Shown: positions 9,478-52,236, counted from the first letter of the stretch. The stretch is 64,000 nucleotides of DNA from a virus (IMGVR_UViG_3300013121_000049:80253-144252), one strand, 5' to 3'. Notes: generated by a model from the letters alone, not told the origin. Made by a program: numbers and translations.

Positions 9478-10746
9478 TCAGACGTGATGCCACTTACGGG
9501 CGTTCAGCGCAAACTGGGCCATGTGACGGAGGTGAGCGTTTTCCGTAGTAGCCAAGACGTGACGCAGGGATTCCTCGGAAATGCGCTCGCCTTGCGGGAC
9601 GCCCATGGCGGCATGGAGGTCGCCCCTGTGCGCGGGGTTAACGGGTTGGAAGTCGGCGGAAGCCTGCTTGCTGATCAGCGGCATACGGTCAAACCGCGCC
9701 TGCGCCCGCGGCGTTCCCGACGCGCCCAGTACAGCGCCCAGCGCGGCTGCTGCGGGGACAGCGTATTTCAACCGAACCCCGGGAATCATGCTCAGGCCTA
9801 CCCCCGTAATACCTCCGGCAAGGGCTCCTGTTGTCGACCGACCCAGCATGGTGGGGCGGTGTACTTCGCTAGGTTGCAGCCACCCTTCCCGGATACCCTG
9901 GTCGATCCGGTGATCCCGGTATACCTGCAGCCCTACGCCCGCAGCCGCTCCACCGAGAGACCCCGCTGCCGCCCATGCAGGGCTGGCGCCGCCTCCCAGC
10001 CAACTGCCCAGCATGCCGCCCCAGATCGCTCCGGAAACTTTGTCAGTATCCCCGGGGTAGACATACTTGACCTGAGGGCGAGAGTCCTCCGCCGACTTGG
10101 TTAGAAATTGCCGAGCCAGCGACAGGGAAGATTGCTTAAAAATACCTGTGTACATGGGATTAAGGCTCCCCGTAGATGGATGGAACGGGAGACTATCTGC
10201 CGCGAGTATTTCTCCCAGGTCTGCCGAAGATGATTTGGCAGTGGCCAAGAGATACTGATCATACTTATGGCGAAGGCTATTCGGAACAGAGTCTTTGTGA
10301 TGAAAAGCCTCCTGGAACTTATCATGGATGCTTCCCTCTCTAAGCCTGGAGGTAAGGTCGCTCTCCAGCTCCGGATACCTCGAATATGCCCCCGCTTGAA
10401 GCGCTGCTTTTCTGGAAGAAATATCGGAAAAATGAGCCTGCATGGCCCGCCAGTCCTCTGGGGTTGGCGAAGCTGCGTGCGTAATCACCGGAGTAGGGCC
10501 GTTCATAAAATTTTTTAAGGGCTCCCGAATAGAGGGAGGGACTTCCCCTATGTCCTTGCGCAAGGCGTCAATCGTACCTGTCGCGTGAGCCAACCCGCCC
10601 CGCAAAGCTCTCCTTCGAAGACTGACCGCAAGCGCCCCTCCCCCCAGCAACGCTCCGCCGGCCAACGCCAAGCCGGGCAGGTTTACAGGCTGGCCATGCT
10701 TGCGCGTGGCTTCCGGCGGAGTATTACGAGAGGACAGGACGCTCAT
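9478..10746 (-). CDS. hypothetical Gly-rich protein (422 aa), possibly an internal virion protein
   Basis: Complete ORF with Gly/Ala-rich hydrophobic stretches. Its start is 2 nt from the upstream stop. Confidence 0.6.
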   Translation of the reverse strand: MSVLSSRNTPPEATRKHGQPVNLPGLALAGGALLGGGALAVSLRRRALRGGLAHATGTIDALRKDIGEVPPSIREPLKNFMNGPTPVITHAASPTPEDWRAMQAHFSDISSRKAALQAGAYSRYPELESDLTSRLREGSIHDKFQEAFHHKDSVPNSLRHKYDQYLLATAKSSSADLGEILAADSLPFHPSTGSLNPMYTGIFKQSSLSLARQFLTKSAEDSRPQVKYVYPGDTDKVSGAIWGGMLGSWLGGGASPAWAAAGSLGGAAAGVGLQVYRDHRIDQGIREGWLQPSEVHRPTMLGRSTTGALAGGITGVGLSMIPGVRLKYAVPAAAALGAVLGASGTPRAQARFDRMPLISKQASADFQPVNPAHRGDLHAAMGVPQGERISEESLRHVLATTENAHLRHMAQFALNARKWHHV

Positions 10747-29100: not shown

Positions 29101-30905
29101 GGCAGGTTGACCACGCGGGCGACCTTGGCCGTCTTCCCGTCATCCCCGCGGATCTCCATCCCGGTGTCGGTGATCTTGCTCACCGTGCCGCTCACCGGGC
29201 TGATCGTGGTCATGATCTTCCCATAGACCTTGGTGAACGGGACCTCCCTGCCGTTCCGGTCACGGGTGGCCGTGGTTACCAGCGGCGCCTCGCGGTCCTT
29301 CAGGGAGAGCGCCTGGACGATGGCCTTGCCCGCCATGGTCAGACGACCCGGATGGTCGGCGTTCATGAACGGCACCAGGTTGGTGGTGACCGTGTACATG
29401 TCCGTCGGCTTCTCCACCCAGTACTGGACCTTGGACTCCGGGACGTTCTTCAGGACGCCGTGATCCTGGGCCTGCACCAAGCCGTTCTTCTTGCCGATCG
29501 TGAACCCGATGCAAGCGTTCATGATCTGGGACGCCGACAGGTAGACCGAGCGCCCCTTGGTGTCCTTGAACCGGCCGTAAAGGTTGCCCTTGGCGTCGCG
29601 CGCCGAGTTGATGGCAAAGCGCAAGTCGACGCCCACCGTGTCGGCTTCCGGCGTCCGGCTGGGATCCAGGATGGTCAGGTGGGACGGGTCAATGTTGCGC
29701 GTCCGGACGTTGTTGGCTTTCTGCAGATCGATGCCGCCTTCCCCCTCGCCCAGAACGGTGACCTTGGCCACGTTCTCCAGGGACTCGATGGGGTTGGTTT
29801 CCGACGGCACGATCGACAGCGTGGACTTGGTCAGGAAGTTCTGCATGACCTTGTTGTAGGGCTTGGAGACCACGACCTTGCGGATCTTCGGCGTCTCCTT
29901 GGACAAGACGGCGCGGTCCAGCCCCCACTTGATCTTGCGGCTGGCGTCGCTGACGTTCTCGTGTTCGCGGCCCTGTTCAAACCGCCGGGCAATCAGGTCC
30001 GGGTAGCTCACGACCCGCTTGAACTGCAGGGAGTCGCGGTTGTCTTCCTCGCGCTCGCCCTTGTGGATGGCGATGATGTTGGCGGCGATACGCAGCAGGG
30101 CATCGCCATCCAGATGCCCAAAGGACTTGCCCAGGGTGACCTTGGTGCCGTCTTCATCCAGGGTACGCTTCTCCAGCCCGACCTTGATCCACTTGATCTT
30201 CTCGGCTTGCGCGGGGTCCGGGTTGGCCTTGCGCTGCTCGTACGGAGCCACCTTGCGATACAGGCGGTTGGCGATGCCGTCGCTATCCCCGGACTCCATC
30301 AGATCCTTGTCCCAGATGGCCGTGGGAATGTAGGCGGACGCTTTCTGCCGGTCGATGCCGAAGACGTGGCTGAGCACCCAGACCAGCGGCACGTTGATGT
30401 CGCCGCTGCTCAGGATCAACGTCTGCTTGCGCGGGTCCAGGGACACTTCCAGGGAGCCGCCGCCGGAGTTGATCTGGGCCATGACAGCGCCGTTGCTGCG
30501 CCGACGATGGTAGACGCCCTCCTTGAGCTGCAGGAGGTGGGAGATGACGTAGTTGTTGCCCTTGTAGACGACCGTGTGCTTGTCCGTCAGGTGAAAGCAG
30601 TCGGCCAGGGCGTAGTTCTTCTCTTCGTCGACCGTCTTCCCCGTCTGCTTGTCGATGATGCGCAGGGTGCCGCGCACCGGGAACGTCAGGGACTTCGATT
30701 CCAGGATCGCCTTCTTTTCGTCTTCCTTGTCGAACGTCTTGCGATCGATCGTGATGTCCGAGACCTCGATACGGTAGCGGGCGTTCTCGATGGGGAACTG
30801 CTTGCGCACGCCATCCACGATGGCCTGGCAAACATCGTTCAGCGTGCTGTCCGGAGACGAGATCATGTGCTTCAGCGGCTTGCCGTCGAGACTGGTCAGG
30901 CTCAT
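26136..30905 (-). CDS. DNA-directed RNA polymerase: a complete beta-like subunit fused to the N-terminal half of beta-prime (through the NADFDGD catalytic region), 1589 aa
   Basis: Beta-subunit blocks: [12 protein letters not shown] (compare GYNFEDSILVSE), [25 protein letters not shown] (compare [25 protein letters not shown]), and LGEGEGGID...TPEADTVGV. Beta-prime blocks: [16 protein letters not shown] and [25 protein letters not shown]. The start is at the ATG that forms an ATGA overlap with the upstream stop; a GTG at 30914 is an alternative. Confidence 0.92.
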   Translation of the reverse strand: [1589 protein letters not shown]

Positions 30906-31330
30906 AGTTGCCACCCCTCACCCGGTTCCTCGTCTTTCTTCGGCGTCTCGAAGACCACGCCCTCGTAGGGCGCATCCTTCGGCTCCAGATACGTCAGGAC
31001 GACGATCATCTCGCCCTCCTTGTTGAAGGATTCCTTGCGGTCCACCAGGTAGATCCGCGTGGTCTCCGAGTGGATACAGGCGTCCAGCAGGCTCTCCAGC
31101 ATCAGTTCCTGCTCGGCAAACCCGGACAGCAGGAACCGCTTGACCCGGAGCTTGTAGTCGGCCAGTTTGAACCCGGCCCGGCCGGGAGCCTTGTCCTTTA
31201 CCGCGGCTTCCTCGTCAAGGTTGCGCAGGGTGACCCCCGGCATGGCTGCCGAATAGTCCTGCAGACCGACTCCCGCGTTCTCCGGAAGGTTGGGGGCATT
31301 GACCCCCGGCGTCTTGTCACGCGGCGGCAT
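30902..31330 (-). CDS. hypothetical acidic protein (142 aa), translationally coupled to the RNA polymerase gene
   Basis: ORF 30902..31381, trimmed to the Met after the GGAGGA ribosome-binding site. Its stop overlaps the RNA polymerase start. Confidence 0.5.
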   Translation of the reverse strand: MPPRDKTPGVNAPNLPENAGVGLQDYSAAMPGVTLRNLDEEAAVKDKAPGRAGFKLADYKLRVKRFLLSGFAEQELMLESLLDACIHSETTRIYLVDRKESFNKEGEMIVVLTYLEPKDAPYEGVVFETPKKDEEPGEGWQL

Positions 31331-36062: not shown

Positions 36063-36292
36063 CTGCCCTCCTGGCTATGCTGGCTGCCGCCGTCGCGGCG
36101 GCCGGTTACCTGGTATGGCTATTCCTGAAAGCCATCCTTGCCCTGTTTTTCGTGTTCTATCAGGTGCTGTTCACAGGACTGCAGATGGTGTGGATCGCCT
36201 CCGGACAACCCGGATGGCTCGCCATGCTGATCTGCCTGTGGGTCAGCGTATCCATCTTTCTGCTGCTTGCCCGGGGGGTTCGCCGTGGGTGA
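36059..36292 (+). CDS. small membrane protein (77 aa, two or three transmembrane helices); a holin-like candidate
   Basis: ATGA overlap with the upstream stop. Sequence begins MTALLAMLAAAVAAAGYLVWLFLKAILALFFVFYQVLFTGLQMVWIASG... Confidence 0.5.
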   Translation: MTALLAMLAAAVAAAGYLVWLFLKAILALFFVFYQVLFTGLQMVWIASGQPGWLAMLICLWVSVSIFLLLARGVRRG

Positions 36293-36302
36293 AGAAGAGT
36301 TC

Positions 36303-36599
36303 ATGGACAACGTCATCTGCCCCGTTGTCCTGTTTTGCGCACGCCAGCGCTTTCGACAATACGCCCAGCTCCGTGAACTCATCGAGGAACTGCTGCTCGG
36401 CATGGAGTCTTTCGGGTATGTAGACGTCATCGGGCCGGGTGCGATAGATTCGCTGATTGAAGAGGGGATTCGCGGCGTTCTGGACCAAGGGGACTCCTTG
36501 ATGCCGCCGCTGACCGGACCACAAGAAAATGCGCTGCGCGACATGCTGCGGCAAATGAGCCAGCCACCAGAGGATGACGTAGACTATGGCCAATTTTGA
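36303..36599 (+). CDS. hypothetical acidic protein (98 aa) ending EDDVDYGQF
   Basis: ORF 36267..36599. The start is uncertain (ATG at 36303 or GTG at 36285). Confidence 0.45.
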   Translation: MDNVICPVVLFCARQRFRQYAQLRELIEELLLGMESFGYVDVIGPGAIDSLIEEGIRGVLDQGDSLMPPLTGPQENALRDMLRQMSQPPEDDVDYGQF

Positions 36600-37178: not shown

Positions 37179-39101
37179 ATGCAAGTCCGCGCCCTCCCTG
37201 GGGGGCGCTACGCGGAGATTGTCGCGGAGTCCCCCCATACCGATTTACCCCTGCTGGACAGCTTTCTCGGCGGGCACAAACACCGTAGCCGGCCGTCCCG
37301 CCTGGTGAGCCGCGACAACCCGCTGGTCCTGAAGTCCGTCCTGCGCCGCCTGAAGCGGCACGTCAAGAACAAAGTCCGGATCCACCTGGACGCCGAAATC
37401 GCTCAGGACTACCTGGGAGAGCCCAAGCTCAAGCCGCTGCCCGCCGGGTTCCGCTACCACACGGCCCCGCTGGAGCACCAGGATATCGCCCTGCGTTACC
37501 TGTGGACGTATCCGCGATTCGGTCTGGGCCTGGACCCCGGTCTGGGAAAGACCAAGGTTGTCCTCGACTGGTTCGCCCTGCTGCAGGTCAAGAAGGCGCT
37601 GGTCATTTGCCCCAAGCCGCTGTTCTACGAATGGCTTCGCCAGGCCCCCCTGCACCGCCCCGACCTGAAGGTCCACGTCCTGTCTTCGGTCTCCTACCGG
37701 GATCTCATTGCAACCCGACAGGAGAAGCTGCAGAGCCCCGACCTGGACCGCGACACCCGTCGAAGGCTGGAGGCTGAACTGCGTACGCTGGAGCGTGAGC
37801 GCCAAGAGGAGAACGATCGGGTGCGGGACGCCCAGGTCATCGTGGCCAACTACGCCAAGCTCCTGCAGAACGAGACGTTCTTCACCAAGATGCCCTGGGA
37901 CGCCGTGGCCATCGACGAAGCCCTGGTCAAGAACCCCGACAGCGAACAGAGCCGCGTCATCCAGGCCATCTCCGACAAGGGCATGCCGATCACGCTGATG
38001 TCGGGCACCCTGATCAACAACGACGCCGGTGACTGCTTCTCGCCGATCCGCATCCTCGACCGATCTATCCTGGGTTCCAGCTTCTACGCCTTCAAGCAGC
38101 GGTACGCCGTCTATCGCCAGTTCGAAGACCCCGAGGGAAAGACCCGAAACCTGCTTGTCGGGTACAAGGATGTGGAGGAGATTCAGGACGCCCTGAATTC
38201 CGTCTTCCTGTTCATGCGCAAGGAGCAATGGCTCAAGGATTTGCCGCCCAAGATCTTCAAGGAGATCGAGGTCGAGCTGTCCGAGGACCAGAAGCGCGTC
38301 TACAAGCTGCTGAAGGAAAACTACGCCGCCCGGCTGCTCAACGACGAATGGGTGGAAGCGGATAACCCCATGGTGCTGGCCGGCAAGCTGGCCCAGATAT
38401 CGTCGGGGTTCATCTACTACGGCTCCCCGGAAGACGAGCTTCGCGACCTGGGGCTGGTCAGCCTGGCTACCTTGCTGCAAGGGAAAAAGGGCAAGGACGG
38501 CGCCAAATCCAAACGGGTCAAGAAGCCGCGCTTCACCTTCAAGTTTGCCGAGAATCCGAAAATCGATGCCGCCATGGCGTTACTAACCGGTGAACTGGCA
38601 AAGAAGAAGGTCGTGCTCTGGTACAACTTCGGCGCCGAGGAAGAAATGCTGGCGGCGGCCCTGCGGCAGCGCGGCATCACCTACCGCACGATCAACGGCG
38701 AGACCAAGGACTCCGGCAAGCTGATCGCCGAGTTCAACACCACGGAGAACGTGCAGGTCCTGATGTGCCAGGCCAAGGCGGTCAACTACGGCATCACGCT
38801 GCTCGGCCGCAACATCGACGACTGCGAGTACGAACCCGAGCTGAGTCCGGAAGTGTACACCCACGTTTTCTACAGCCTGAATTACAGCCTGGAAGTCTTC
38901 CTGCAGCAGCAGGACCGAAGCCACCGCATCGGTATGACTCACAGCCCTACCTATTACATCCTCAGAGGAAAGACCATGATCGAGCGTGCGATCTACCGCC
39001 GCCTGCTGGCCCGCATGGAGGTCCGCGAGGCCTTCGTCCGCGACACCCTGCGCCCGCCCCCTTCCAAGGAGCCGGTCATCGCCGGTCTGGGAGACGACTG
39101 A
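37179..39101 (+). CDS. SNF2-family (DEAD/DEAH-like) helicase
   Basis: Motif I LGLDPGLGKTKVVL. A DExx-type motif II (AIDEALVKN). A C-terminal helicase domain (VLWYNFGAEEEMLAAAL...QQQDRSHRIGM). Confidence 0.85.
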   Translation: MQVRALPGGRYAEIVAESPHTDLPLLDSFLGGHKHRSRPSRLVSRDNPLVLKSVLRRLKRHVKNKVRIHLDAEIAQDYLGEPKLKPLPAGFRYHTAPLEHQDIALRYLWTYPRFGLGLDPGLGKTKVVLDWFALLQVKKALVICPKPLFYEWLRQAPLHRPDLKVHVLSSVSYRDLIATRQEKLQSPDLDRDTRRRLEAELRTLERERQEENDRVRDAQVIVANYAKLLQNETFFTKMPWDAVAIDEALVKNPDSEQSRVIQAISDKGMPITLMSGTLINNDAGDCFSPIRILDRSILGSSFYAFKQRYAVYRQFEDPEGKTRNLLVGYKDVEEIQDALNSVFLFMRKEQWLKDLPPKIFKEIEVELSEDQKRVYKLLKENYAARLLNDEWVEADNPMVLAGKLAQISSGFIYYGSPEDELRDLGLVSLATLLQGKKGKDGAKSKRVKKPRFTFKFAENPKIDAAMALLTGELAKKKVVLWYNFGAEEEMLAAALRQRGITYRTINGETKDSGKLIAEFNTTENVQVLMCQAKAVNYGITLLGRNIDDCEYEPELSPEVYTHVFYSLNYSLEVFLQQQDRSHRIGMTHSPTYYILRGKTMIERAIYRRLLARMEVREAFVRDTLRPPPSKEPVIAGLGDD

Positions 39102-39103
39102 CC

Positions 39104-40675
39104 ATGTGGACCCGTCAGCAAATCACCGAGAACTTCCCGCTGGAAGGCCGGGCGCCGCGCTTCTCACAGGTCGTCACCGTGGAGGCCATCCTCGACAGCT
39201 TCATGAACCGGGGTAAGCGTTTCGTCATCCTGCAGTCCCCCGTGGGTTCCGGGAAATCGGCCATCGCCATGTCGCTGGCCAAGTACTTCGGCAGCAGCCA
39301 CGTCCTTACGCCGCGCAAGCCCCTGCAGGACCAGTACTTCAGCGACTTCCAGCACATGGCGGTCACCATGAAGGGCCGGTCCTCCTACCCTTGCGTCTAC
39401 CTGGACAACAGCGAGTACGAGCTGATCCGCAAGTTCATCTTGCGCGGGGAGTCGCCACCGGCGTTCATCACCGAGCGCAACTGCGCCCAGGGTCGCTGCA
39501 GCAACGGCAACAAGGAAGTCTACGAGGCCTGCTCCCGGCGCCAGCAATGCCCTTACTCCCTGGCCATGGGCGTTGCCCAGCAGAGCAACCACATCCTCCA
39601 CAACTTTCACTCGTTCATCTTTCAGGCCTATATGGGCGACAAGTTCGACAAGCGCCCCCTGATGGTCATTGACGAAGCCCACCGCCTGCGAAACACGCTG
39701 CCGGACTTCCTTAGCCGCCAGGTTTTCGCCCGCGGCATCCGGGGAGACTCCAAGACGCCGGCGGACGGCGCTCCGATTGACGAATGGTGCGACTGGTTCA
39801 GCCAGGAGGAATTCGTCCACAAGTACAGCACCAAGGTCGACCGGGAAGACTACCTGGACCGTATCGCCTCGCTGCGCATGGGCATGCGCGGCCGGGAATA
39901 CGTCATCGAGCGCAAGGTGCTGGACGCAGGCACGCGATTCACTTTCCGCCCGCTGTACCTGGGGCAGATTGCCGAGGAGTTTCTCTTCCAGTTCGCCGAC
40001 AAGATCCTGCTGATGTCCGGCACGATCTACAGCAAGGACGCCTTCTGCGACCGGCTGGGCATTGACCCAGAGGAAGCCGACTTCCTCGACGTCGACTCCT
40101 CCTTCCCGGTGAAGATCCGCCCGGTCATCGTCAAGCCCGACTACCTGGTGCCGACGTCCCACAAGGACAAAGACATGCGGAGGATCCGCGATGTCGTGAA
40201 GACGATCCTCGACCGGGCTCCGGACAAGAAGGGCCTGATTCACGTCCCCAGCTACGAGTTCGGCCGCGAGCTGATCTCGGCCATGCCCGACGAGCCGCGC
40301 CTGCTTGGCCACGCCTCGGACAACACGCAGGAAACGCTCGACAAGTTCTTCCAGAGCGATCAGGCGCTGGTGCTGGTTTCCCCGGTTTGCACGGAAGGCG
40401 TGGACTTCAAGGACGACCGCGCGCGCTTCCAGATCGTCTGCCGGGTGCCCTATCCGAATGTCGGCGATCCCTGGGTGAAGGCGCACATGGAGCGTAGCCG
40501 CAACTGGTTCAACCTGGAGGCACTGACCGTGTTCGGCCAGATGCTGGGCCGCGTCAATCGCCATGACGACGACTACGGGGTTACCGTGCTCATCGACGAA
40601 CGCTTCCCCGACTTCATCCGGCGCAACAAGCACTTGATCCCGGAATGGCAATACAAGGCGTTCATTTTCCGCTGA
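39104..40675 (+). CDS. XPD/Rad3/DinG-family Fe-S helicase
   Basis: Walker A SPVGSGKS. DEAH box VIDEAHRL. A four-Cys Fe-S cluster (C...C..C...C between CVYLD and QQCPY). The start is trimmed to the ATG at 39104. Confidence 0.85.
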   Translation: MWTRQQITENFPLEGRAPRFSQVVTVEAILDSFMNRGKRFVILQSPVGSGKSAIAMSLAKYFGSSHVLTPRKPLQDQYFSDFQHMAVTMKGRSSYPCVYLDNSEYELIRKFILRGESPPAFITERNCAQGRCSNGNKEVYEACSRRQQCPYSLAMGVAQQSNHILHNFHSFIFQAYMGDKFDKRPLMVIDEAHRLRNTLPDFLSRQVFARGIRGDSKTPADGAPIDEWCDWFSQEEFVHKYSTKVDREDYLDRIASLRMGMRGREYVIERKVLDAGTRFTFRPLYLGQIAEEFLFQFADKILLMSGTIYSKDAFCDRLGIDPEEADFLDVDSSFPVKIRPVIVKPDYLVPTSHKDKDMRRIRDVVKTILDRAPDKKGLIHVPSYEFGRELISAMPDEPRLLGHASDNTQETLDKFFQSDQALVLVSPVCTEGVDFKDDRARFQIVCRVPYPNVGDPWVKAHMERSRNWFNLEALTVFGQMLGRVNRHDDDYGVTVLIDERFPDFIRRNKHLIPEWQYKAFIFR

Positions 40676-40681
40676 CCGAAT

Positions 40682-40690
40682 TGGTATAAG
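40682..40690 (+). promoter_or_regulatory. promoter-like motif TGGTATAAG
   Basis: Lies 43 nt upstream of the ATG at 40733. A short GGGGAC-acttc-GTCCC hairpin follows. Confidence 0.45.
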
Positions 40691-40732: not shown

Positions 40733-41182
40733 ATGAGCATTACTGTTACCGCAAGCTTTGTGGAGACCCCGATCCTCCACGGCCTGCAGACCCTGCTAGC
40801 AGTGAATCACAGCCGCCGTCAGGCTTCTGTAGAGATCGGAGAATTCTTGACCGCAGCCTTCCCGGCAATCGCCGGGGCGGCTGCAAAAGAGTTCGACGTG
40901 GAAGAGTGCCAGCTCTTCCACGACGCAGCCCGAGCCGTCGGCCCGGACGTGGCGCAAGCCATGTGCGTCAAGCTGGACGCCATGCCCCCGAGCATGGTGA
41001 TACCGCATGCGGTTGCTTTCCTCCAGCGCGAGCTGGCGGCAAGCGACTGTGATGAGACCCTGCTCCTGAAAGGGGCGAGCCTCATTGATCGGGGCCTCCG
41101 TGCCAAGGCAGGGATCCTGCCCTGCGCGGAAGGCGCGGTGCACGGCATCCGCGCCGTGCGCCGCCTGCTGGAGGCCGCATGA
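40733..41182 (+). CDS. hypothetical protein (149 aa)
   Basis: ORF with an AAAGGAGAG ribosome-binding site. Confidence 0.55.
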   Translation: MSITVTASFVETPILHGLQTLLAVNHSRRQASVEIGEFLTAAFPAIAGAAAKEFDVEECQLFHDAARAVGPDVAQAMCVKLDAMPPSMVIPHAVAFLQRELAASDCDETLLLKGASLIDRGLRAKAGILPCAEGAVHGIRAVRRLLEAA

Positions 41183-41235
41183 ATTGGCCGGATGAAGACG
41201 ACGACGAGGCCCTAGACCTCGATGTCGTCTTCTGA
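41179..41235 (+). CDS. small acidic peptide (18 aa) MNWPDEDDDEALDLDVVF
   Basis: ATGA overlap with the upstream gene. A terminator follows. A paralogue lies at 43070..43147; it differs by synonymous changes (AAT/AAC, CCG/CCC, CTA/TTA), which indicates selection at the protein level. Confidence 0.35.
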   Translation: MNWPDEDDDEALDLDVVF

Positions 41236-41247
41236 CTCCCTCAATTC

Positions 41248-41271
41248 AGCCCGCCATGTGCGGGCTTTTTT
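41248..41271 (+). terminator. intrinsic terminator (AGCCCGC-catgt-GCGGGCT followed by TTTTT)
   Basis: A 7 bp GC stem followed by a T-tract. Confidence 0.7.
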
Positions 41272-41282
41272 AGCCCGAACAC

Positions 41283-41291
41283 GGGTATAAG
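41283..41291 (+). promoter_or_regulatory. promoter-like motif GGGTATAAG
   Basis: Lies directly after the terminator. It heads a 545 nt non-coding stretch before the ATG at 41834. Confidence 0.45.
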
Positions 41292-41812
41292 AAGCTAGAC
41301 ACCGAACTTTACCCCAGGCGGGGTACGGCGTGTCATGGCAAGGCCGGGCTCGGCACGGTCCGGCGGGGCTTGCAGAGGTTTGGCGAGGTGCGGCGTGGCA
41401 AGGACTTCTCACTGGGCTCGGCGAGTTCAGTGAGAAGTCCTTGAGGAAGGGTTTGGCTTGATCTGGTCAGGTTGGGCTGGGCGGGGTGTTGCTTGGAAAG
41501 GCAAGCCTGGGCTCGGCGAGGCAAGGCTAGGAGAGGCAAGGCGAGCCGGGGAATGGCAAAGCTTGGCAAGGCGTGGCAAGGCCCGGCATGGCGGGGCTCG
41601 GATAGGCACGGCATGGCTGGGTTAGGTACGGATTGGCATGGCGAGGGTTTCTCGCTGGGCTCGACGAGTTCAGCGAGAAACCCTTGGTGACTAGCACTAA
41701 TGATTATCTTCAATGGCGAGGTTCGGTCAGGTTTGGACAGGACGGGCTGGGTAAGGTAAGGCATGGCAAGGGCTTCGCCCGGAGCGGGAAACCACTCCGG
41801 GTTTTTCTTTTT
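41292..41812 (+). ncRNA. candidate structured non-coding RNA or long leader: GGCAAGGC/GGGCTCGGC-type short repeats, two covarying hairpins, and a 3' intrinsic terminator
   Basis: Hairpin 1, 41403-41439: GACTTCTCACTG-ggctcggcgagtt-CAGTGAGAAGTC. Hairpin 2, 41645-41683: GGGTTTCTCGCTG-ggctcgacgagtt-CAGCGAGAAACCC. The loops are near-identical and the stems differ but stay complementary. The terminator CCCGGAG...CTCCGGG plus TTTTTCTTTTT lies at 41778-41812. Confidence 0.4.
41778..41812 (+). terminator. intrinsic terminator or attenuator immediately upstream of the ribosome-binding site for gene 41834
   Basis: A 7 bp stem (CCCGGAG / CTCCGGG) followed by a T-tract. Confidence 0.6.
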
Positions 41813-41833
41813 CACACACAAAAGGAGGTCAGC

Positions 41834-42454
41834 ATGGCTGGCAAGAAGAAAGACGTGGTGGGCGATCCCACCAATGGCGGTGAAGAAAGCATTCTGGCTT
41901 CTGCGCCCTACACAGTTCGAGTTCAAATTACTGGAAGTGCGAAGTTTCTGTTTCACAGATGGAACTGCGAAAGCATTGAAGCCAAAGCAGCTGCGGCCAA
42001 GAACAGCGCCGCTAAGAGGACTGACGATACCGCGTCTTACGTTTACCGTGACGACGACGGCAATCTGTGCATCCCCGGCGAGTATCTGCGGCAGGCGATC
42101 ATTGCCGCCGCCAAGTACCGTCAGGATCCGCGCAGTCCGCGCAAGTCCATGATGGACATCACGAAGGCCGGCATCGTCAGCCTGACCGACTTGGCCAGCT
42201 TGGGTGTTCAGGATTGGGACTTCCTGGACAAGCGCCGGGTGGTCGTGCAACGCGCGGGCATCAACAGGACTCGGCCCGCCATGAACGCCGGGTGGTCAGC
42301 CGAGTTCGACTTGATGGTCGGACTTCCCGAATATTTCACTCCTGCACTGGTCAATGATCTGCTGGTAGACGCTGGCCGCCTGATCGGCATCGGCGACTTC
42401 CGGCCGACGTTTGGCCGATTCAACGTAACCCATTTTGAGGTGCTGACGAAATGA
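41834..42454 (+). CDS. hypothetical protein (206 aa)
   Basis: ORF 41633..42454, trimmed to the ATG at 41834 after an AAAGGAGG ribosome-binding site. The upstream part of the listed ORF is the repeat region. Confidence 0.6.
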   Translation: MAGKKKDVVGDPTNGGEESILASAPYTVRVQITGSAKFLFHRWNCESIEAKAAAAKNSAAKRTDDTASYVYRDDDGNLCIPGEYLRQAIIAAAKYRQDPRSPRKSMMDITKAGIVSLTDLASLGVQDWDFLDKRRVVVQRAGINRTRPAMNAGWSAEFDLMVGLPEYFTPALVNDLLVDAGRLIGIGDFRPTFGRFNVTHFEVLTK

Positions 42455-43086
42455 CCGCTCCCGCTTACTTCGCCCACACTTTGGGCGAATACAAGCTGCC
42501 CGCAGACGCGGCAGCCAAGCTCCACTCCGCCCCACGAGACCTGGGGAAGTTCATGCCGGTAGTCCTGGACTTGTGCGGGGAAGCCGCTGAATGGGCTACC
42601 ACCGCCCTGCTACACGTTCTCTCCGAGCTGCCGGATAAACTGGCAAAAGAGGTCGGCGTGACGGTTTCCATGGACGACCTCAAGACGTTCAACGCCGGCT
42701 TCCTGCTGTCCACCATCGAGCAGGAAATCCCCCGCGTGCAGGACTTCGGAGGAAAGGATGCCCGGGAAATCTCCTTGGACGACCTGGCCAGCGTCCTGCG
42801 GTTCACGGCGCTGCAGTCCAAGACAATGCTCCTGCACGAGGAACTCCTCGGCAAGACCATGCTGGACGACAGCGTCCACCCCGTGAAACGCTTGGCGGCG
42901 ATGACGCAGTTCAAGGAAGTTGGGGAAATGGCGGTCAAAGAATTCCTGAAGACGGTGCGGTGGTGCGACGTTCTGGCAGACCGCGCCAATCGCTCCGGAT
43001 TCGTCCGGGATACTCTGGAAGCTTTGCTGATCGAGAGCCTGGTAATGCCGCCCGGCGAGGAGGACAACCATGCAAGCGCACATTAA
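42451..43086 (+). CDS. hypothetical protein (211 aa)
   Basis: ORF with an ATGA overlap with the previous gene. Confidence 0.6.
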   Translation: MTAPAYFAHTLGEYKLPADAAAKLHSAPRDLGKFMPVVLDLCGEAAEWATTALLHVLSELPDKLAKEVGVTVSMDDLKTFNAGFLLSTIEQEIPRVQDFGGKDAREISLDDLASVLRFTALQSKTMLLHEELLGKTMLDDSVHPVKRLAAMTQFKEVGEMAVKEFLKTVRWCDVLADRANRSGFVRDTLEALLIESLVMPPGEEDNHASAH

Positions 43087-43147
43087 CTGGCCCCCGGAGC
43101 CCGAGGATAACGAGGATGACTCGTTAGACCTCGATGTCGTGGGCTGA
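43070..43147 (+). CDS. small acidic peptide (25 aa) MQAHINWPPEPEDNEDDSLDLDVVG
   Basis: Paralogue of the 41179 peptide. It overlaps the end of gene 42451..43086 in another frame. It is also antisense to the last 24 nt of the sigma factor gene. A terminator follows. Confidence 0.3.
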   Translation: MQAHINWPPEPEDNEDDSLDLDVVG

Positions 43148-44032
43148 CTCAACGACGGCCTCCTCCGGGAGGCCTTTTTTTACATAGAATTGCCGGATCT
43201 TGCGCATGGCCGCAGTCTGCAGACGACGGACCTCGGACACCGTGCACCCCATATCCTGAGACAGCTGACTGATACTCTGCTTGGCCGCGCCGGCCAGCTC
43301 GAACATCGCCGAAATGACGCGCCACTCCCGAGAGGAAAGCATGGCCTGCAGGCGCCCGCACAAGAGGTCGTCATCCATGCTCTGGATGAGGTCATCTGAG
43401 AAGTCGGCCACCGTGAGGGGGGCCAGGGTAATGTCTGATCGCGCAACGGCGTCATCAATGTCGGCAGAGGAGTGGCGAGAGGAGTGTGAAGACAGGATGC
43501 CGCGGAGGATGTCATCGATGTAGACGGTGACGTACAGGGTCTTTCGCAAGTTGGCGATGATCTCCGTACTGGTGGATGGCGCGCACCGCTGCTGAAGCTC
43601 GACATCCGTGATCCTGGGTTCCTTGGCCAGGATGTCGCGTATCTTCACGGCAAGCTGCTGCTGCCACACGGGGAGCTTGACCAGCCTGAGCTTCTGCTGC
43701 GTCCGCCACTGGCACTGGTTTACCCACCACCCGGCGTAGGTCAGGAACTTGTGCCCGCGCTTGTAGTCGAACCGCGACAGGGCGATACACAGACCTTCGT
43801 TCCCCGCCGCCACCAGTTCTTCGAACTCATAGGCACCCAGTTTACGAGCACGCAGCTTGGCCTGCTTGGCGACAAACATGATGCACGACCGGACGATCTT
43901 GTCGCGGGCCGCATCCTTTTTCCAGCGCGGCGCTTCCGGATCCTCCAGTGTGGCGAACAGAGACTGCTCCTCCTCCCGGCTCAAGGGCTTTTGTTTTGAA
44001 ACCAGGGTGAAATAGGAGGATATTGGATCCAC
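43124..44032 (-). CDS. sigma-70 family RNA polymerase sigma factor (302 aa)
   Basis: Region 2: IMFVAKQAKLRARKLGAYEFEELVAAGNEGLCIALSRFDYKRGHKFLTYAGWWVNQCQWRT, which has the FSTYATWWIRQAI-type pattern. Region 4: SSREWRVISAMFELAGAAKQSISQLSQDMGCTVSEVRRLQTAAMRKIR. The start is a GTG with a weak ribosome-binding site, so it is uncertain. Confidence 0.85.
   Translation of the reverse strand: MDPISSYFTLVSKQKPLSREEEQSLFATLEDPEAPRWKKDAARDKIVRSCIMFVAKQAKLRARKLGAYEFEELVAAGNEGLCIALSRFDYKRGHKFLTYAGWWVNQCQWRTQQKLRLVKLPVWQQQLAVKIRDILAKEPRITDVELQQRCAPSTSTEIIANLRKTLYVTVYIDDILRGILSSHSSRHSSADIDDAVARSDITLAPLTVADFSDDLIQSMDDDLLCGRLQAMLSSREWRVISAMFELAGAAKQSISQLSQDMGCTVSEVRRLQTAAMRKIRQFYVKKGLPEEAVVESAHDIEV
43157..43181 (+). 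terminator. intrinsic terminator (GGCCTCC-tccg-GGAGGCC followed by TTTTTTT), located inside the 3' coding region of the convergent sigma gene
   Basis: A 7 bp stem followed by a T7 tract. On the opposite strand the same bases encode ...KKGLPEEAVV of the sigma factor. Confidence 0.65.
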
Positions 44033-49314: not shown

Positions 49315-52236
49315 ATGAGCATGTTCCAGATCCTCAAGCGCGAAGTCCCCTTGCGCCAGGGGATCGAGCATTACACCGGGGCCAAGCTGACTTCCTGTGG
49401 AAGTCGTAACAGTCAACTCGAAGACACCTCCTGCCCGTTCTGCGGGCACAACGACTGCTTCAAGTGCCTCAGCGACGAGGATCAGGATATCCTCGTCCAC
49501 TTCCGATGCTATTCCTGCGGCCGGCAGGGCTCGGATACCGTGGCCTTCTACATGGAGCTGCACAACGCGAAGCCGGAGAACCGGGCAAAGAGCATCGAAG
49601 CCATCTATGCCGCCAAGCAGGTAGCCAAAGACTTCGATGTCCCCTGGCAAGACTTCGCCGCCGTGCAGCAAGAGATTCTCGACGTCACCGCCCGGTTCTA
49701 TCACTACTGCCTGACCGGGAACAGCGACCGGATCATCGTGGACGGCTACGACAACCTCAACCCGCTGAAGTACCAGACGGAGTACCGGAAGCACTCCTTG
49801 GAAGCGCTGGATGAGTTCGAGGTCGGGTGGGCGACCAAGTCCAATAGCCTGCAGGACTACCTGGAGGGGCTGGGCTACTCGGTAGAGGATTGCATCTCCG
49901 CCGGCGTCCTGGTTGAGCACAAGGACGAGAAGACCAAGAAGACGAAGGTAAACCCGCTGTTCTGGCCGGGGGTGTTCATCTATCCGCACTTCGTCGACGG
50001 AAAGGTCAGCCATTTCACCCAGAAAAGCCCGGACCCCCTGAAGCCATCCAAGCACCAGATGAAGGCCGAGCATTCCCGCAACGGCTACATGGTGTATGGT
50101 CAGGATGACGTCAAGCATGCCCGTCAGGTGTTCGTCGTTGAAGGGGAGAACGACCGGATATCCCTGTGGGAGCACCTGAAGGGGAAGGCCGCGGTCATCG
50201 CCCTGATCGGTCAACCCTCGAAGAAGCAATGCGACTGGATCGCCGCCAACCTCCGGGACAAGGACGTCTACACCATCTTCGACAATGACGACGCCGGGGA
50301 CAAATACCGGACGGTGTTCCAGGGGCTCAGCCTGGCTCGCCTGAAGCAGTTCAAGGTTCCGGGAAAATGGAAAGACATCGATGAGTACCTGAAGAAGGAT
50401 CCCGCTGCGGAACTGGAGCGTCTTGTCCCTGCCGTCATCAAGCTGGATACCGAAAACGCCCGTACCCCGGAAGACGGCAAGGACGGCACCGGCAGCTTGC
50501 GCGGCGTGTTCGAGGAGGGCAACTGCTACTACCGCCTCAGCATCGACCGGAAGGGAAACGCCGAGCCCGTCAAGGTCAGCAACTTCACCATGCGCCTGCA
50601 ACGGGTCTACGTCTACGAAAAGGACGACACCCGTGAACGCGAGGTCATCATCGTCAAGGAAGATGGCACGGAGGCCCCGGTCCCCTTGCTGGTCGATTCC
50701 CTGGTGAAGACCCGGCTGCAGGACTTCCGCAAAGCCATCGCAGACGTCGCCGACGTCGCGTTCTACGGAGGCGATCAGGACCTGCATGCGGTGTGGGACG
50801 CCGTGTACAACAAGCAGGAGGGGAAAGTCATCCGGGTGCCCATGGAGATAGGCCACCAGTACAACGGCGGATGGGTGTTCCGCGACTGCTACATCGACCC
50901 CAAGGGAGAGGTTTTCCCGGCAACCCGCGACGGGCTGATCCCGGTCCATGACGAATACCTGTTCCCCATGGGTGTCACCATCCAGACCAACGCCCGACGC
51001 AAGCACAGGCAACGTCACGGTATCCCCTCCCTGATCATCCCCTACGACAAGACGGAGGCCGAGCACGAAGCCTTCTTCCAGGAGTTCTGCCACCACTTCA
51101 TCCGGAACATCGGCGACGTTGGCATGGCTGTCTGCATGCTGGCCTGGGCCAAGGCCTGCGCCTTCAGCCACCAGGTCTTTGAGCACTATCGGTTCTTCCC
51201 GTTCCTCTACCTGTGGGGCCGGTTCGGCAAAGGCAAATCCACGGTGTCCTACTGGCTGCTCAACCTGTACGGAATGCGCGGCATCAGCGAAAACAGCCTG
51301 TCCCGCCTGGAGAGCGGCGTCGGCTTCAATCGCATGATGGCGACCTACAGTTCCCTGCCCGTCCTGCTGGAGGAGATGCGGGCAAACAAGGAAGCGTCCG
51401 ACCTACACGGCACCATCCGCTCCTGGTACAACCGGGTGCCCCGCCCCATGGGCGACCGCCGCGACGCCTCCGTGATCGTCAGCCAGCCCGTCCGCGCCTG
51501 CCTGATGTTCAACGGGGAGGACGTGCTGACCGACCCGGCGGCGCGATCACGGTGCATCGAGTTCCAGTTCCCCCCGGAGGAGAAGCGGGACCTGGATGTC
51601 TCCTACACCTGGATTGAAGGCCACGCGGAAGAACTGCCGTCCATCGGTCTCCGCTGGATCCGGGAGAGCCTCACCACGGACTACGAGGCGCTGTTTGCCG
51701 ACATGAAGCGGGTGGAACGCATGCTGCTGGCCGGGGCGACCAAGGACCGCCGCGTCGCCCAGCAGTGGAGCCTGATCGGCGTATTCGCAGACCATCTGTT
51801 CTCCGACCTGGGCCTGGACCCCGTCCAGTACAGTCTGGAGGCTTTCCTGATCGCCGCCTGCAAGGGGAGGTCGGAGGACATCCGCGAGGAGAACATCGTC
51901 ACCCAGTTCTTCCAGATGGTGGAGGGTATCCAGGTACAGAAAAACTCGCCGATCATGGTTGGCGAGCACTTGCGTGTCGCCGGGGACCAGATATTCCTGT
52001 GGGTGCCCGAGCTCTGGCAGATTTGCCAGCGCGAACGCGAAGCCCTCCGGAACAGCGCCACCACGTTCTCCTCGAAGGCCCTGCTCAATAGCCTGAGGGG
52101 GGAGCCCTACTACCAGGACACGGCGGCTCGCAAGATGGGGATGTCCGGCACCAACCGGAAAGTCGTCATTCTGCGCCTGGAAGAGGGTATTCCTGACAGT
52201 TTGAAGGCCATCGCGGCCCTCGCCGAAGCCGAGTAG
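49315..52236 (+). CDS. DNA primase fused to a helicase: Zn-binding domain, TOPRIM domain, and a C-terminal P-loop NTPase
   Basis: CHC2-type Zn finger (SCPFCGHNDCFKC...CYSCGRQG). TOPRIM acidic motifs (VFVVEGENDRISL, TIFDNDDAGDKY). Walker A GRFGKGKST. Confidence 0.88.
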   Translation: MSMFQILKREVPLRQGIEHYTGAKLTSCGSRNSQLEDTSCPFCGHNDCFKCLSDEDQDILVHFRCYSCGRQGSDTVAFYMELHNAKPENRAKSIEAIYAAKQVAKDFDVPWQDFAAVQQEILDVTARFYHYCLTGNSDRIIVDGYDNLNPLKYQTEYRKHSLEALDEFEVGWATKSNSLQDYLEGLGYSVEDCISAGVLVEHKDEKTKKTKVNPLFWPGVFIYPHFVDGKVSHFTQKSPDPLKPSKHQMKAEHSRNGYMVYGQDDVKHARQVFVVEGENDRISLWEHLKGKAAVIALIGQPSKKQCDWIAANLRDKDVYTIFDNDDAGDKYRTVFQGLSLARLKQFKVPGKWKDIDEYLKKDPAAELERLVPAVIKLDTENARTPEDGKDGTGSLRGVFEEGNCYYRLSIDRKGNAEPVKVSNFTMRLQRVYVYEKDDTREREVIIVKEDGTEAPVPLLVDSLVKTRLQDFRKAIADVADVAFYGGDQDLHAVWDAVYNKQEGKVIRVPMEIGHQYNGGWVFRDCYIDPKGEVFPATRDGLIPVHDEYLFPMGVTIQTNARRKHRQRHGIPSLIIPYDKTEAEHEAFFQEFCHHFIRNIGDVGMAVCMLAWAKACAFSHQVFEHYRFFPFLYLWGRFGKGKSTVSYWLLNLYGMRGISENSLSRLESGVGFNRMMATYSSLPVLLEEMRANKEASDLHGTIRSWYNRVPRPMGDRRDASVIVSQPVRACLMFNGEDVLTDPAARSRCIEFQFPPEEKRDLDVSYTWIEGHAEELPSIGLRWIRESLTTDYEALFADMKRVERMLLAGATKDRRVAQQWSLIGVFADHLFSDLGLDPVQYSLEAFLIAACKGRSEDIREENIVTQFFQMVEGIQVQKNSPIMVGEHLRVAGDQIFLWVPELWQICQREREALRNSATTFSSKALLNSLRGEPYYQDTAARKMGMSGTNRKVVILRLEEGIPDSLKAIAALAEAE

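Follow-up and report, generated by a model that had tools for sequence, protein, structure and literature searches.

Duplicated Trp-box micro-genes beside a DinG-like helicase in a large phage and their possible role as docking peptides

The window analyzed here is a 64,000-nt stretch of viral DNA (IMGVR_UViG_3300013121_000049:80253-144252) that contains two very short ORFs, referred to below as mini-genes 1 and 2. Their family sits within a block of replication genes encoding a SNF2 helicase, a DinG-like helicase, a PD-(D/E)XK nuclease, a primase, and Pol A. The conserved synteny anchor of the family is the DinG/XPD-like helicase gene (39101-40675, + strand), which has Helicase_C_2, ResIII, and DEAD_2 domains. 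Just past its stop at 40675, a promoter-like motif, GGTATAAG (40683-40690, +), marks the start of a first unit, 43 nt before gene 1 (40733-41182, +). Gene 1 encodes a 149-aa orphan without Pfam or PHROG matches and is lineage-specific cargo between the motif and mini-gene 1; the related loci L031 and L032 have no counterpart of it in the interval from helicase to mini-gene. Mini-gene 1 (MNWPDEDDDEALDLDVVF; 41179-41235, +; 18 aa, ATG to TGA) encodes a divergent Trp-box micropeptide, and its start overlaps the stop of gene 1 as ATGA, in the -1 frame. A Shine-Dalgarno (SD) sequence read from the DNA, GGAGG (41170-41174, +), stands 4 nt before the ATG, and an intrinsic terminator (41248-41271, +) follows the ORF, with its stem at 41248-41266 (AGCCCGC-catgt-GCGGGCT) and then T6.

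A scan for the promoter-like motif placed the start of unit 2 at 41284-41291 (+). Arrays of (GGNNN)n at 41337-41771 precede a gene for a 206-aa protein (phrog_4652; 41834-42454, +), widespread cargo that was rejected as a synteny anchor, being promiscuous cargo found in unrelated temperate phages without neighboring mini-genes. Gene 2 (42451-43086, +), directly upstream of mini-gene 2, encodes a 211-aa orphan and is again lineage-specific cargo; it had no Pfam or PHROG match, and a search of 5.8 billion proteins found only two protein clusters. No relatives of gene 1 or gene 2 were found in IMG/VR, and direct comparison led us to reject the two genes as paralogues. Mini-gene 2 (MQAHINWPPEPEDNEDDSLDLDVVG; 43070-43147, +; 25 aa), a paralogue of mini-gene 1, overlaps the final 17 nt of gene 2 with its start, in the +1 frame, and has an SD sequence, GAGGAGG (43057-43063, +; read from the sequence), 6 nt before its ATG. 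The initial annotation does not mention an SD sequence for either mini-gene. The second intrinsic terminator (43157-43181, +; stem at 43157-43174, GGCCTCC-tccg-GGAGGCC, then T7) sits inside the 3' coding end of a convergent phage sigma-70-family gene (43124-44032, - strand; Sigma70_r2 and Sigma70_r4, phrog_351), and the complement of its T-run supplies the codons for the conserved KKG at the sigma C-terminus. Transcripts ending at 43181 would cover 57 nt of the sigma coding end; mini-gene 2 itself, which had been described as antisense to the 3' end of the sigma gene, overlaps the last 8 sigma codons.

The two acidic mini-ORFs are present as initially described, each with a terminator after its stop (9 to 12 nt away), and rereading of the sequence confirmed their frames relative to the preceding genes. 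These frames are open from 41089 (peptide 1) and 43046 (peptide 2), and neither contains an alternative ATG, GTG, or TTG between the preceding stop and the mini-ORF start. A 16-mer, TAGACCTCGATGTCGT, is identical in both mini-genes and occurs at no third site within the window. The earlier statement that the copies differ by synonymous substitutions and an indel needs one qualification: purely synonymous differences (n = 4) are confined to the NWP and LDLDVV blocks, and the acidic linker has D/E/N/A/S replacements as well as a 3-codon indel. A third gene with an acidic tail (36267-36599, ending EDDVDYGQF), which had been listed alongside the pair, proved not to be a relative: it lacks a Trp box, and the orthologue in L032 ends in RNKTFTY. 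Nine copies of the GGTATAAG motif are present in the window (0.33 expected), always on the + strand and always in intergenic positions, and it is also found upstream of genes in L031, L032, L053, L054, L067, L071, L080, and Salmonella phage Arash. The window phage carries the mini-gene unit in duplicate, each copy behind lineage-specific genes. In unit 1, gene 1 separates the promoter-like motif from the mini-ORF; in unit 2, gene 2 and the 206-aa gene do so. Each mini-ORF is therefore the final cistron of an operon and overlaps translationally with the one before it.

We recovered further members of the family by using the neighboring DinG-like helicase as an anchor (48 loci). A same-strand mini-ORF of 11 to 46 codons was present 0 to 3.4 kb downstream of the helicase at 35 of the 48 loci, while the other 13 had no member within the fetched flanks; conservation in related phages, which had been proposed as a check, is borne out, and one member lies in the cultured phage Arash. 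The 29 unique peptides yield the consensus [LI]-[WF]-[ND]-W-[DP]-x-[WF]-P. This Trp box, near the N-terminus, is the conserved part, and the tail is variable. The box begins at residues 2 to 25, often directly after the Met, and 5 to 40 residues separate the invariant Trp from the peptide end. Most members (22/29) have two to four Trp residues, with W at position -2 in 21 of 29 and N at position -1 in 23. Matches to the four-residue core numbered 29 in the 66,234 residues of short downstream frames on the helicase strand versus 8 in 306,026 residues elsewhere (odds ratio, 16.8; P = 1.5e-15), and in long ORFs (373,771 residues) a slightly extended motif matched only 5 times. SD-like sequences precede most members, though not all, and intrinsic terminators follow 2 to 17 nt after the stop. 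At several loci, promoter-like GGTATAAG, SD sequence, mini-ORF, and terminator together make up a unit that stands alone. What comes after the terminator is either another promoter-like motif (as for window copy 1, L054, and L067) or a convergent gene (window copy 2, L031, and L032).

The closest relative, L001 (helicase identity, 99%; gene 2 identity, 89%), has both copies: its orthologue of mini-gene 1 (8968-9024) encodes an identical peptide with 3 synonymous changes, and that of mini-gene 2 (10620-10697) differs by V>I and one synonymous change. L031 (helicase, 63%) and L032 (helicase, 59%) each have a single stand-alone copy—MKTKAGICFNWDECEGDESSLQYSSPDED and MCGFNWDDCEGEDTSLSYSGPDEE, respectively—between the helicase and a convergent sigma gene, and the position of mini-gene 2, before a terminator and the convergent sigma gene, matches that in L031, L032, and Arash. 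L033 and L034 (helicase, 49%) encode MN[FL]FNWPDPEDGGLFEDDADQG, and distant loci (helicase, 31 to 45%) and phage Arash encode peptides of the WNWDxW(P) type. The Arash member lies in an unannotated gap [OQ632216.1, complement(121790..121930)]; the helicase stop and the beginning of a conserved ~90-aa ORF, likewise unannotated, both overlap with the mini-ORF in Arash-like phages. The window copies are the most divergent members, with only one Trp (codon 3 or codon 7), which lacks flanking aromatic residues, and their membership rests on synteny and on the intermediates L031, L032, L034, and L061.

The phages bearing the family form a clade of large phages with their own multisubunit RNA polymerase, of which Arash is a cultured member. 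Their GC contents span ~35 to 62%, which points to very different hosts. In this clade, the family is set just downstream of the DinG/XPD-like helicase, often before a convergent sigma gene, and its ancestral form is a tiny stand-alone unit consisting of the GGTATAAG motif, a short 5' untranslated region, an SD sequence, the mini-ORF, and an intrinsic terminator. Placed by sequence comparison, the window ORFs are assigned to this unannotated family of phage micro-genes of 11 to 46 aa and are not chance ORFs. Other searches were negative. Megablast against INPHARED returned no close relatives, and a back-translated pattern, TGGCC..GAYCTNGAYRTNGTNNNNTRA, gave 15 chance matches in IMG/VR, none with NWP plus an acidic run. 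Neither the peptides nor the family profile matched Pfam, PHROGs, or PDB sequences, and a literature search for a WNW phage peptide found nothing relevant. The helicase profile hit only three mis-binned MAG contigs among bacterial genomes, which gave no host information.

Nucleotide changes within the family are those of a coding sequence. Across 9 orthologous pairs, differences at codon positions 1, 2, and 3 numbered 17, 9, and 41, and the 12-codon core of L035 and L037 differs by 8 synonymous and 0 nonsynonymous codon changes. Between the window and L001, peptide 1 has 3 synonymous and 0 nonsynonymous changes, in line with the peptide-level conservation originally proposed, as are the stand-alone orthologues with their own signals. 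Sigma codons or terminator context had been named as a possible sole cause of the conservation but do not account for it; in the same comparison, the overlapping sigma tail varies (A>T and D>N), while peptide 2 changes only by V>I and one synonymous substitution. Positions -2 and +3 accept W, F, Y, I, or M and not arbitrary residues, and this limited exchange suggests selection on side chains rather than on UGG codons. Judged from these alignments, the mini-ORFs are paralogues with the signature of purifying selection, as expected of genuine coding-type mini-genes.

Several readings that would deny the free peptide a role were weighed against this pattern. Both NWP blocks start exactly at the upstream stop (TGA-ATT-GG and TAA-CTGG), as would be expected if they were C-terminal extensions of the upstream proteins made by programmed frameshifting or created by assembly error. 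Yet opposite shifts (-1 and +1) would be required and a slippery site is absent, the upstream genes 1 and 2 are unrelated, each copy has its own SD sequence and ATG, and the orthologues in L031, L032, L034, and other loci are free-standing, 11 to 54 nt or more past the preceding gene; the same arrangement also recurs in independent assemblies from several samples. The judgment of the initial annotation that a frameshift fusion is unlikely is well founded, and we regard this explanation as highly improbable. An RNA-level element, in which a structured 3' end (hairpin plus terminator), maybe antisense to sigma mRNA, would be the selected product and the ORF incidental, deserves somewhat more attention but is still very unlikely. 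Mini-gene 1 forms a hairpin (41181-41247, +; minimum free energy, -28.9 kcal/mol; z = -5.08; 0 of 200 shuffles as stable) in which 41194-41203 pairs with 41223-41232 and 41205-41209 with 41217-41221, the LDVVF codons of peptide 1 being the reverse complement of its EDDDE codons. Intra-ORF hairpins were significant in peptide 1 (z = -5.1), L031 (-3.8), L044 (-3.1), and peptide 2 (-2.8), the 16-nt identity of the window copies has no internal synonymous change, and a transcript to 43181 would run into the sigma coding end as described above. However, L032, L034, L037, and Arash have no stable intra-ORF hairpin (z, ~0), and with 4 of 8 tested members significant, the hairpin was rejected as a family-wide trait. 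In addition, the 16-mer in L001 copy 2 has GTC changed to ATT (Val to Ile), third positions diverge freely across the family while the peptide core is retained, and copy 1 has no antisense gene. The significant hairpins in peptide 1, peptide 2, L031, and L044 may leave room for an RNA-level function at those loci. A cis-acting ORF, whose translation or nascent peptide would control the terminator, the stability of the mRNA 3' end, or the translation of neighboring cistrons while the free peptide has no role, is the rival we take most seriously, though it too seems unlikely. It may work by Trp-codon sensing, by arrest at W/P/acidic sequences, or by ribosome destabilization at N-terminal D/E/P runs. 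Very short, Trp-rich frames whose stops lie so close ahead of a terminator would fit, like Trp leaders (RF00513) and TnaC, which share both traits, and so would the Arash-like mini-ORFs that bridge the helicase stop and the next ORF start, if translation were coupled. PEPED or DEDDDE runs near the N-terminus are of the ribosome-destabilizing type; Chadani and coworkers reportedly described in 2017, for MgtL, that N-terminal acidic/proline runs destabilize ribosomes. Peptide 1 plus its terminator (41179-41273) also gave a subthreshold match to the Rfam Trp_leader model (22 bits; E = 0.25), but the gathering threshold of RF00513 is 41. Unlike a Trp leader, the mini-genes show no antiterminator pairing (with the 3' arm of the terminator blocked, nothing pairs with the 5' arm, and the remaining structure lies wholly upstream) and have no regulated co-directional target, since what comes after the terminator is another GGTATAAG motif or a gene in convergent orientation. 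Each window copy has only the one Trp noted above, and the variable distance from Trp box to stop is unlike a fixed arrest geometry, including the Trp/Asp/C-terminal Pro-stop spacing of TnaC-type arrest. The N/D and D/P residues kept among the Trp residues, together with W-to-F/Y exchanges, favor side-chain selection.

Two further readings give the peptide a role but a different one from that preferred here. The initial annotation suggested that the peptides could mimic the acidic C-terminus of SSB or T7 gp2.5; they would then compete for tail-binding pockets on replication and repair proteins such as ExoI, RecQ, PriA, chi, or DinG-type clients. SSB tails have an acidic run and then a terminal hydrophobic residue, usually Phe, with a free carboxylate, the pattern being [DE]3[IL]PF-COOH; the E. 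coli SSB C-terminus is MDFDDDIPF, and the T7 gp2.5 type is DGDF. E. coli DinG-family helicases are SSB-tail clients. Peptides of the window subclade resemble SSB and T7 gp2.5/gp4 tails in being short, disordered, and acidic, with hydrophobic or aromatic anchors, and their genes lie within the replication block; peptide 1 has a VVF-COOH terminus, and the distant members L071, L080, and L053 have D-W-D-[DEM]-F-P, reminiscent of the SSB end. However, LDLDVV(F/G) endings and acidic runs are confined to part of the family and missing from most members, several tails being basic or Pro-rich, and the net charge is zero or positive in 9 of the 29 unique members. The terminal hydrophobic residue is not conserved either: peptide 2 ends in VVG, and the final residue of other members is variously D, E, G, T, N, Y, L, K, S, A, M, or H. 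Conservation centers on an N-terminal or internal element rather than a C-terminal one, and the peptide 1 hairpin gives its LDVVF ending a nonpeptide reason. Whereas an SSB tail is joined to an OB-fold protein, the mini-gene peptides are not, and their anchor is an internal WNWD box. In T7 gp2.5/gp4, the tail belongs to a larger replication protein and its C-terminal aromatic is essential; the mini-ORFs differ in being free-standing, with their own SD sequence and ATG, and in having a terminal aromatic only in a minority. Tail mimicry does not describe the family, and we consider it improbable. Still less probable is a modified-peptide precursor of the darobactin/daropeptide RiPP kind, which the resemblance of the WNWDxW core to WNWSKSF brings to mind. 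W-N-W is common to the family, at the -2 and -1 frequencies given above, and to the DarA core, where an aromatic residue likewise stands a few positions on. DarA has a WNWxKxF core and a leader of ~48 residues (PMC9055067), whereas the mini-genes stand in a cytoplasmic phage context without a leader, as the early start of the Trp box indicates. K and R are absent from the eight most frequent residues at +2, the cross-link position; the first Trp is missing from the window copies, and a transporter and a signal peptide are both missing. An adjacent DarE radical-SAM/SPASM enzyme would be expected of such a precursor; no radical-SAM domain was found by Pfam among 30 ORFs of the window (64 kb of a ~144-kb contig), and no radical-SAM product name appears in four Arash feature tables, where most products are "hypothetical protein."

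The reading we prefer is a duplicated Trp-box micro-gene whose product may act in trans as a short docking peptide. Its docking part is drawn by analogy, since no profile match in Pfam, PHROGs, or PDB sequences suggests a function, and we put the whole at about even chances. In this proposal, the free peptide would serve as a short linear docking motif, with the aromatic Trp box entering a pocket on some partner kept throughout the clade even though the hosts differ widely. Most economically, the partner would be a replication or transcription protein of the phage or else a host machine of universal occurrence. Where an acidic run is present, in one subclade only, it might add affinity through charge or by mimicking nucleic acid, and LDLDVV(F/G) would be a lineage-specific ending, co-determined at least in copy 1 by the mRNA hairpin. 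T4 stp, which encodes a 26-residue anti-restriction peptide, is mentioned for comparison only. It is likewise a tiny, independently expressed phage ORF whose peptide presumably acts in trans, but it has no sequence similarity to the mini-genes, Stp being basic and aromatic without a Trp box, and the mini-gene family differs in being retained throughout a clade whose hosts are very diverse. More tentatively, the Trp-box peptides could represent a new class of phage short-linear-motif effectors whose WNWDxWP box docks onto some component of replication or transcription that is conserved universally, which may be the phage's DinG-type helicase, sigma, or RNA polymerase or a host machine, with the promoter-terminator cassette serving as a landing pad for new cargo genes, as in the window.

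Gene callers drop ORFs shorter than ~30 codons, which makes conserved phage micropeptides nearly invisible, and the Trp-box family is missing from the Arash annotation, Pfam, and PHROGs. In the window, a mini-gene cassette was duplicated, and orphan genes were then inserted into it. That a Trp-rich motif of eight residues persists over ~35 to 62% GC points to a strongly constrained interaction. Since one member of the clade, Salmonella phage Arash, is in culture, the docking hypothesis is directly testable, and the identity of the partner could give a new handle on the control of replication or transcription in a barely studied clade of RNA-polymerase-encoding phages.

Two mini-ORFs were re-read from the sequence at exactly the positions given in the initial annotation. 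Mini-ORF 1 (41179-41235, + strand) encodes peptide 1, MNWPDEDDDEALDLDVVF, and mini-ORF 2 (43070-43147, + strand) encodes peptide 2, MQAHINWPPEPEDNEDDSLDLDVVG; in both, the ATG is the earliest possible start after the preceding in-frame stop. The ATG of mini-ORF 1 and the stop of gene 1 (40733-41182; 149 aa) share the sequence ATGA, the mini-ORF lying in frame -1 relative to that gene, and mini-ORF 2 begins 17 nt within the 3' end of gene 2 (42451-43086; 211 aa), in frame +1. Genes 1 and 2 are not paralogues, and neither matched Pfam or PHROG. Canonical Shine-Dalgarno sequences precede both mini-ORFs (GGAGG, 41170-41174, and GAGGAGG, 43057-43063; both + strand), and the intrinsic terminators proposed earlier are present 9 to 12 nt past the stops (stems at 41248-41266, then T6, and 43157-43174, then T7; both + strand). 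A 16-mer, TAGACCTCGATGTCGT, is present in both copies and at no other place in the window. The end of mini-ORF 2 overlaps the 3' end of a convergent sigma-70-family gene (43124-44032, - strand), as had also been noted.

Both mini-ORFs are kept in the nearest relative, the syntenic locus L001 (helicase 99% identical, gene 2 89% identical). Peptide 1 is identical in the two genomes, its codons differing only synonymously at three sites (aat>aac, ccg>ccc, and gat>gac), and peptide 2 differs at one residue, V>I, for which two bases have changed, and at one further base synonymously. The three bases changed in peptide 2 also alter the overlapping sigma tail nonconservatively (A>T and D>N), so the conserved frame is that of the mini-ORF rather than the sigma tail. 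Together with the retention of both copies in L001, these differences rule out an assembly error.

Homologues of the neighboring DinG/XPD-like helicase (39101-40675, + strand) were used as anchors to search 48 loci, and a family member was present in 35; none was detected in the flanking sequence covered at the other 13. In L031 and L032 (helicase identities of 63% and 59%), all that separates the helicase from the convergent sigma gene is a mini-ORF (MKTKAGICFNWDECEGDESSLQYSSPDED and MCGFNWDDCEGEDTSLSYSGPDEE, respectively), preceded by AACGGGTATAAGTA, a small 5' untranslated region (5'UTR) hairpin, and a Shine-Dalgarno sequence and followed by a terminator. At L033 and L034 (helicase identity of 49%), MN[FL]FNWPDPEDGGLFEDDADQG and a terminator directly follow the helicase, and peptides at more distant loci include MSNVIWNWDGWEEGEGTPSELT, MRVSLEWNWDNWDY, MPWNWDHWPVPPTK, MNLELWNWQYWPKVPVNRVPVNPKK, and MFLHYFDWDDFPVPETEEVIEND. 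The 29 unique peptides, 11 to 46 aa in length, share the consensus [LI]-[WF]-[ND]-W-[DP]-x-[WF]-P (the Trp box), in which the central Trp is invariant. A mini-ORF of the window's kind is thus a clade-wide feature.

The convergent arrangement has features of its own. In the window (43124-43181, - strand), L031 (4097-4155), and L032 (5224-5300), the sigma ORF extends across the terminator of the mini-gene facing it. In all three, the conserved sigma sequence ...YY(L/V)KKG is encoded by the complement of the terminator T-run, and the poorly conserved residues past KKG are read on across the hairpin and the mini-ORF end. The 5'UTR hairpins of L031 (3975-3996) and L032 (5138-5158), situated between the promoter-like motif GGTATAAG and the mini-ORF Shine-Dalgarno sequence, differ by compensatory changes (CAGGC-gacgt-GCCTG versus CAGAC-aagatc-GTCTG).

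Salmonella phage Arash, an "orphan" phage, is the family's only cultured member and the closest relative in culture (helicase identity of 39%). Its genes for SNF2 helicase, DinG-like helicase, and convergent sigma are ordered as in the window, and it also encodes RNA polymerase (RNAP) subunits (PMC10585845). Arash and three Arash-like contigs carry a mini-ORF reading MNIWNW[GE][YF]FPNG[DE]E[DN]ED..., whose start and the helicase stop overlap as ATGA. The complete Arash genome has a single copy (OQ632216.1, complement(121790..121930), - strand; MNIWNWGYFPNGDEDED...), located in a gap without annotation in GenBank. A further unannotated ORF of ~90 aa (MKMKIQVNECQLEITPEGV...SRVARVLAAVAICAEL...), conserved in four Arash-like genomes (L085/Arash, L062, L064, and L065; L085 6597-6875, equivalent to Arash OQ632216.1 ~complement 121615-121893), begins within the mini-ORF, at DEDED codons that give MKMK when read in the +1 frame, and overlaps the sigma gene 3' end on the opposite strand. 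Arash also has its own tRNA-Trp (51676-51746), one of about 25 tRNAs that it encodes, which is of note only in that the mini-ORF family is rich in Trp.

Short frames downstream of the helicase on its strand (66,234 residues) contained 29 matches to the four-residue core of the Trp box, against 8 in all remaining short frames (306,026 residues; odds ratio of 16.8; P = 1.5e-15), and a slightly extended form of the motif had 5 matches in 373,771 residues of long ORFs. Nine orthologous pairs showed 17, 9, and 41 differences at codon positions 1, 2, and 3, respectively, and the 12-codon core of L035 versus L037 had 8 synonymous and 0 nonsynonymous codon changes. The core enrichment and codon-position pattern are, at the level of sequence, signatures of a translated gene under purifying selection, and a real translated family is very probable. 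The proposal that the mini-genes are real and conserved as peptides is borne out by these comparisons, as is conservation in related phages, with members found from L001 to Arash.

The comparisons thus establish, from sequence, a conserved and selected micro-gene with its own expression signals; how the product works is more tentative. The reading we favor, at somewhat short of an even chance, is that the product would be trans-acting, a short peptide that docks onto its partner by way of the Trp box. Positions flanking the central Trp accept W/F/Y/I/M, whereas N/D and D/P are kept, which points to selection on side chains rather than on UGG codons. A cis-acting regulatory ORF is unlikely, since the distance from motif to stop varies from 5 to 40 residues, arguing against a fixed ribosome-arrest geometry, and no co-directional gene lies downstream of the mini-ORF terminators for an attenuator to regulate. 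These same three observations support a trans-acting docking peptide. An Rfam Trp_leader match (RF00513) spans exactly mini-ORF 1 and its terminator (41179-41273) but falls below threshold (22 bits versus a gathering score of 41; E = 0.25), and a Trp attenuator was rejected at this site, which also lacks the structure that an attenuator requires. Fusion to the upstream proteins by frameshifting, already doubted in the initial annotation, is scarcely credible given the frames of -1 and +1 and the separate Shine-Dalgarno sequence and ATG of each mini-ORF. A darobactin-like RiPP precursor is suggested by WNW, which resembles the darobactin core WNWSKSF, but is highly improbable because no leader precedes the box, Lys/Arg is not among the frequent residues at the cross-link position, and neither the 30 window ORFs scanned against Pfam nor the product names in four Arash feature tables point to a radical-SAM enzyme. 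For a trans-acting docking peptide, retention of the Trp box in phages of very different base composition points to a partner that would be either a conserved phage protein, with the adjacent helicase, sigma, and RNAP as obvious candidates, or a universal host machine.

The initial annotation had suggested that the peptides could be mimics or competitors of single-stranded DNA-binding protein (SSB) tails. This now seems improbable, because only part of the family has the acidic run or the LDLDVV(F/G) end: many members stop right after the Trp box or carry basic or Pro-rich tails, and 9 of the 29 unique peptides are not net acidic. The acidic-tailed gene at 36267-36599, ending in EDDVDYGQF and likened to the peptides earlier, was rejected as a relative, as it lacks a Trp box and the orthologue in L032 does not end in acidic residues. 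The EDDDE codons of peptide 1, GAAGACGACGACGAGG, are an almost perfect reverse complement of its LDVVF codons, CCTCGATGTCGTCTTC, and the two form a hairpin that covers the whole of mini-ORF 1 (-28.9 kcal/mol; z = -5.1), so the hydrophobic end may be partly shaped by RNA structure. Comparable intra-ORF hairpins occur in mini-ORF 2, L031, and L044 and are absent from L032, L034, L037, and Arash; there is little likelihood that the mini-gene is purely an RNA element.

The motif GGTATAAG occurs 9 times in the window versus 0.33 expected (7973, 22994, 25334, 35444, 40683, 41284, 44719, 46392, and 52614), always intergenic and on the + strand, 25 to 60 nt 5' of gene starts. Of its 31 copies in the whole Arash genome, 30 share a strand. 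Distant relatives that differ in GC content have the motif too; it is promoter-like and clade-wide, and the clade's own RNAP and sigma probably use it as their promoter. The sites at 40683, directly after the helicase and before gene 1, and at 41284, directly after terminator 1, define two units in the window. The first consists of the promoter-like motif, gene 1, mini-ORF 1, and terminator, and the second of the motif, a (GGNNN)n leader, a 206-aa gene, gene 2, mini-ORF 2, and terminator. L031 and L032 have one unit each, with only motif, mini-ORF, and terminator. In the simplest history, the mini-gene cassette would have been duplicated, and each copy would have gained lineage-specific genes downstream of its promoter-like motif and ahead of its mini-ORF.

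The 206-aa protein (41834-42454) matches phrog_4652, with no Pfam match, and has 5,935 homologues at E<=0.001, the best 120 of which are 63 to 74% identical; this conservation is unusually high for a mobile cargo gene. The homologues, including one on a Chelatococcus genome contig, occupy very different temperate-phage neighborhoods, beside RecT, RusA, HU, GcrA, and DnaB. The leader of the 206-aa gene (41337-41771) is filled by in-phase GGNNN pentamer arrays in runs of 5 to 17 units (e.g., GGCAAGGCGTGGCAAGGCCCGGCATGGCGGGGCTCGG), which were not found in two control stretches of the window. Arrays also occur in L001 (9124-9486), L010 (4383-4544), L011 (5672-5844), L012, L013 (5854-5975), and L015 (5957-5993); across six unrelated phage or prophage contexts, homologues of the gene have similar arrays 5' of them. 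The layout of triplet and 2-nt spacer may recall the arrays to which ring-shaped RNA-binding proteins such as TRAP bind. The leader also contains two near-perfect, paralogous palindromes with 20 to 22 nt per arm (41399-41443 and 41644-41684; arms CAAGGACTTCTCACTGGGCTCG/CGAGTTCAGTGAGAAGTCCTTG in one).

The window belongs to a phage-like contig of about 144 kb, and no close relative was found in INPHARED or IMG/VR. Its phage encodes a multisubunit RNAP, comprising a fused ORF of 1592 aa (26139-30914, - strand) with Rpb2 domains 3 and 6 (beta) and Rpb1 domains 1 and 2 (beta' N-terminal part) and a beta'-C piece of 607 aa (5447-7267, - strand) with Rpb1 domain 5. A sigma factor, SNF2 and DinG/XPD-like helicases, Toprim primase, Pol A, PD-(D/E)XK nuclease, and dUTPase are also encoded. 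Searches of Pfam, PHROG, and PDB sequences gave no match to the mini-ORF family, and no literature on a Trp-box motif of this kind in phages was found. Phage micropeptides and short docking motifs are already known as a general kind, to which the predicted family belongs; the family itself and its motif are new, and its cassette organization is distinctive. The mini-genes first seen in the window are real, although not as SSB-tail mimics, and the finding is wider than was initially apparent: they are the most divergent, duplicated form of a clade-wide Trp-box micro-gene.
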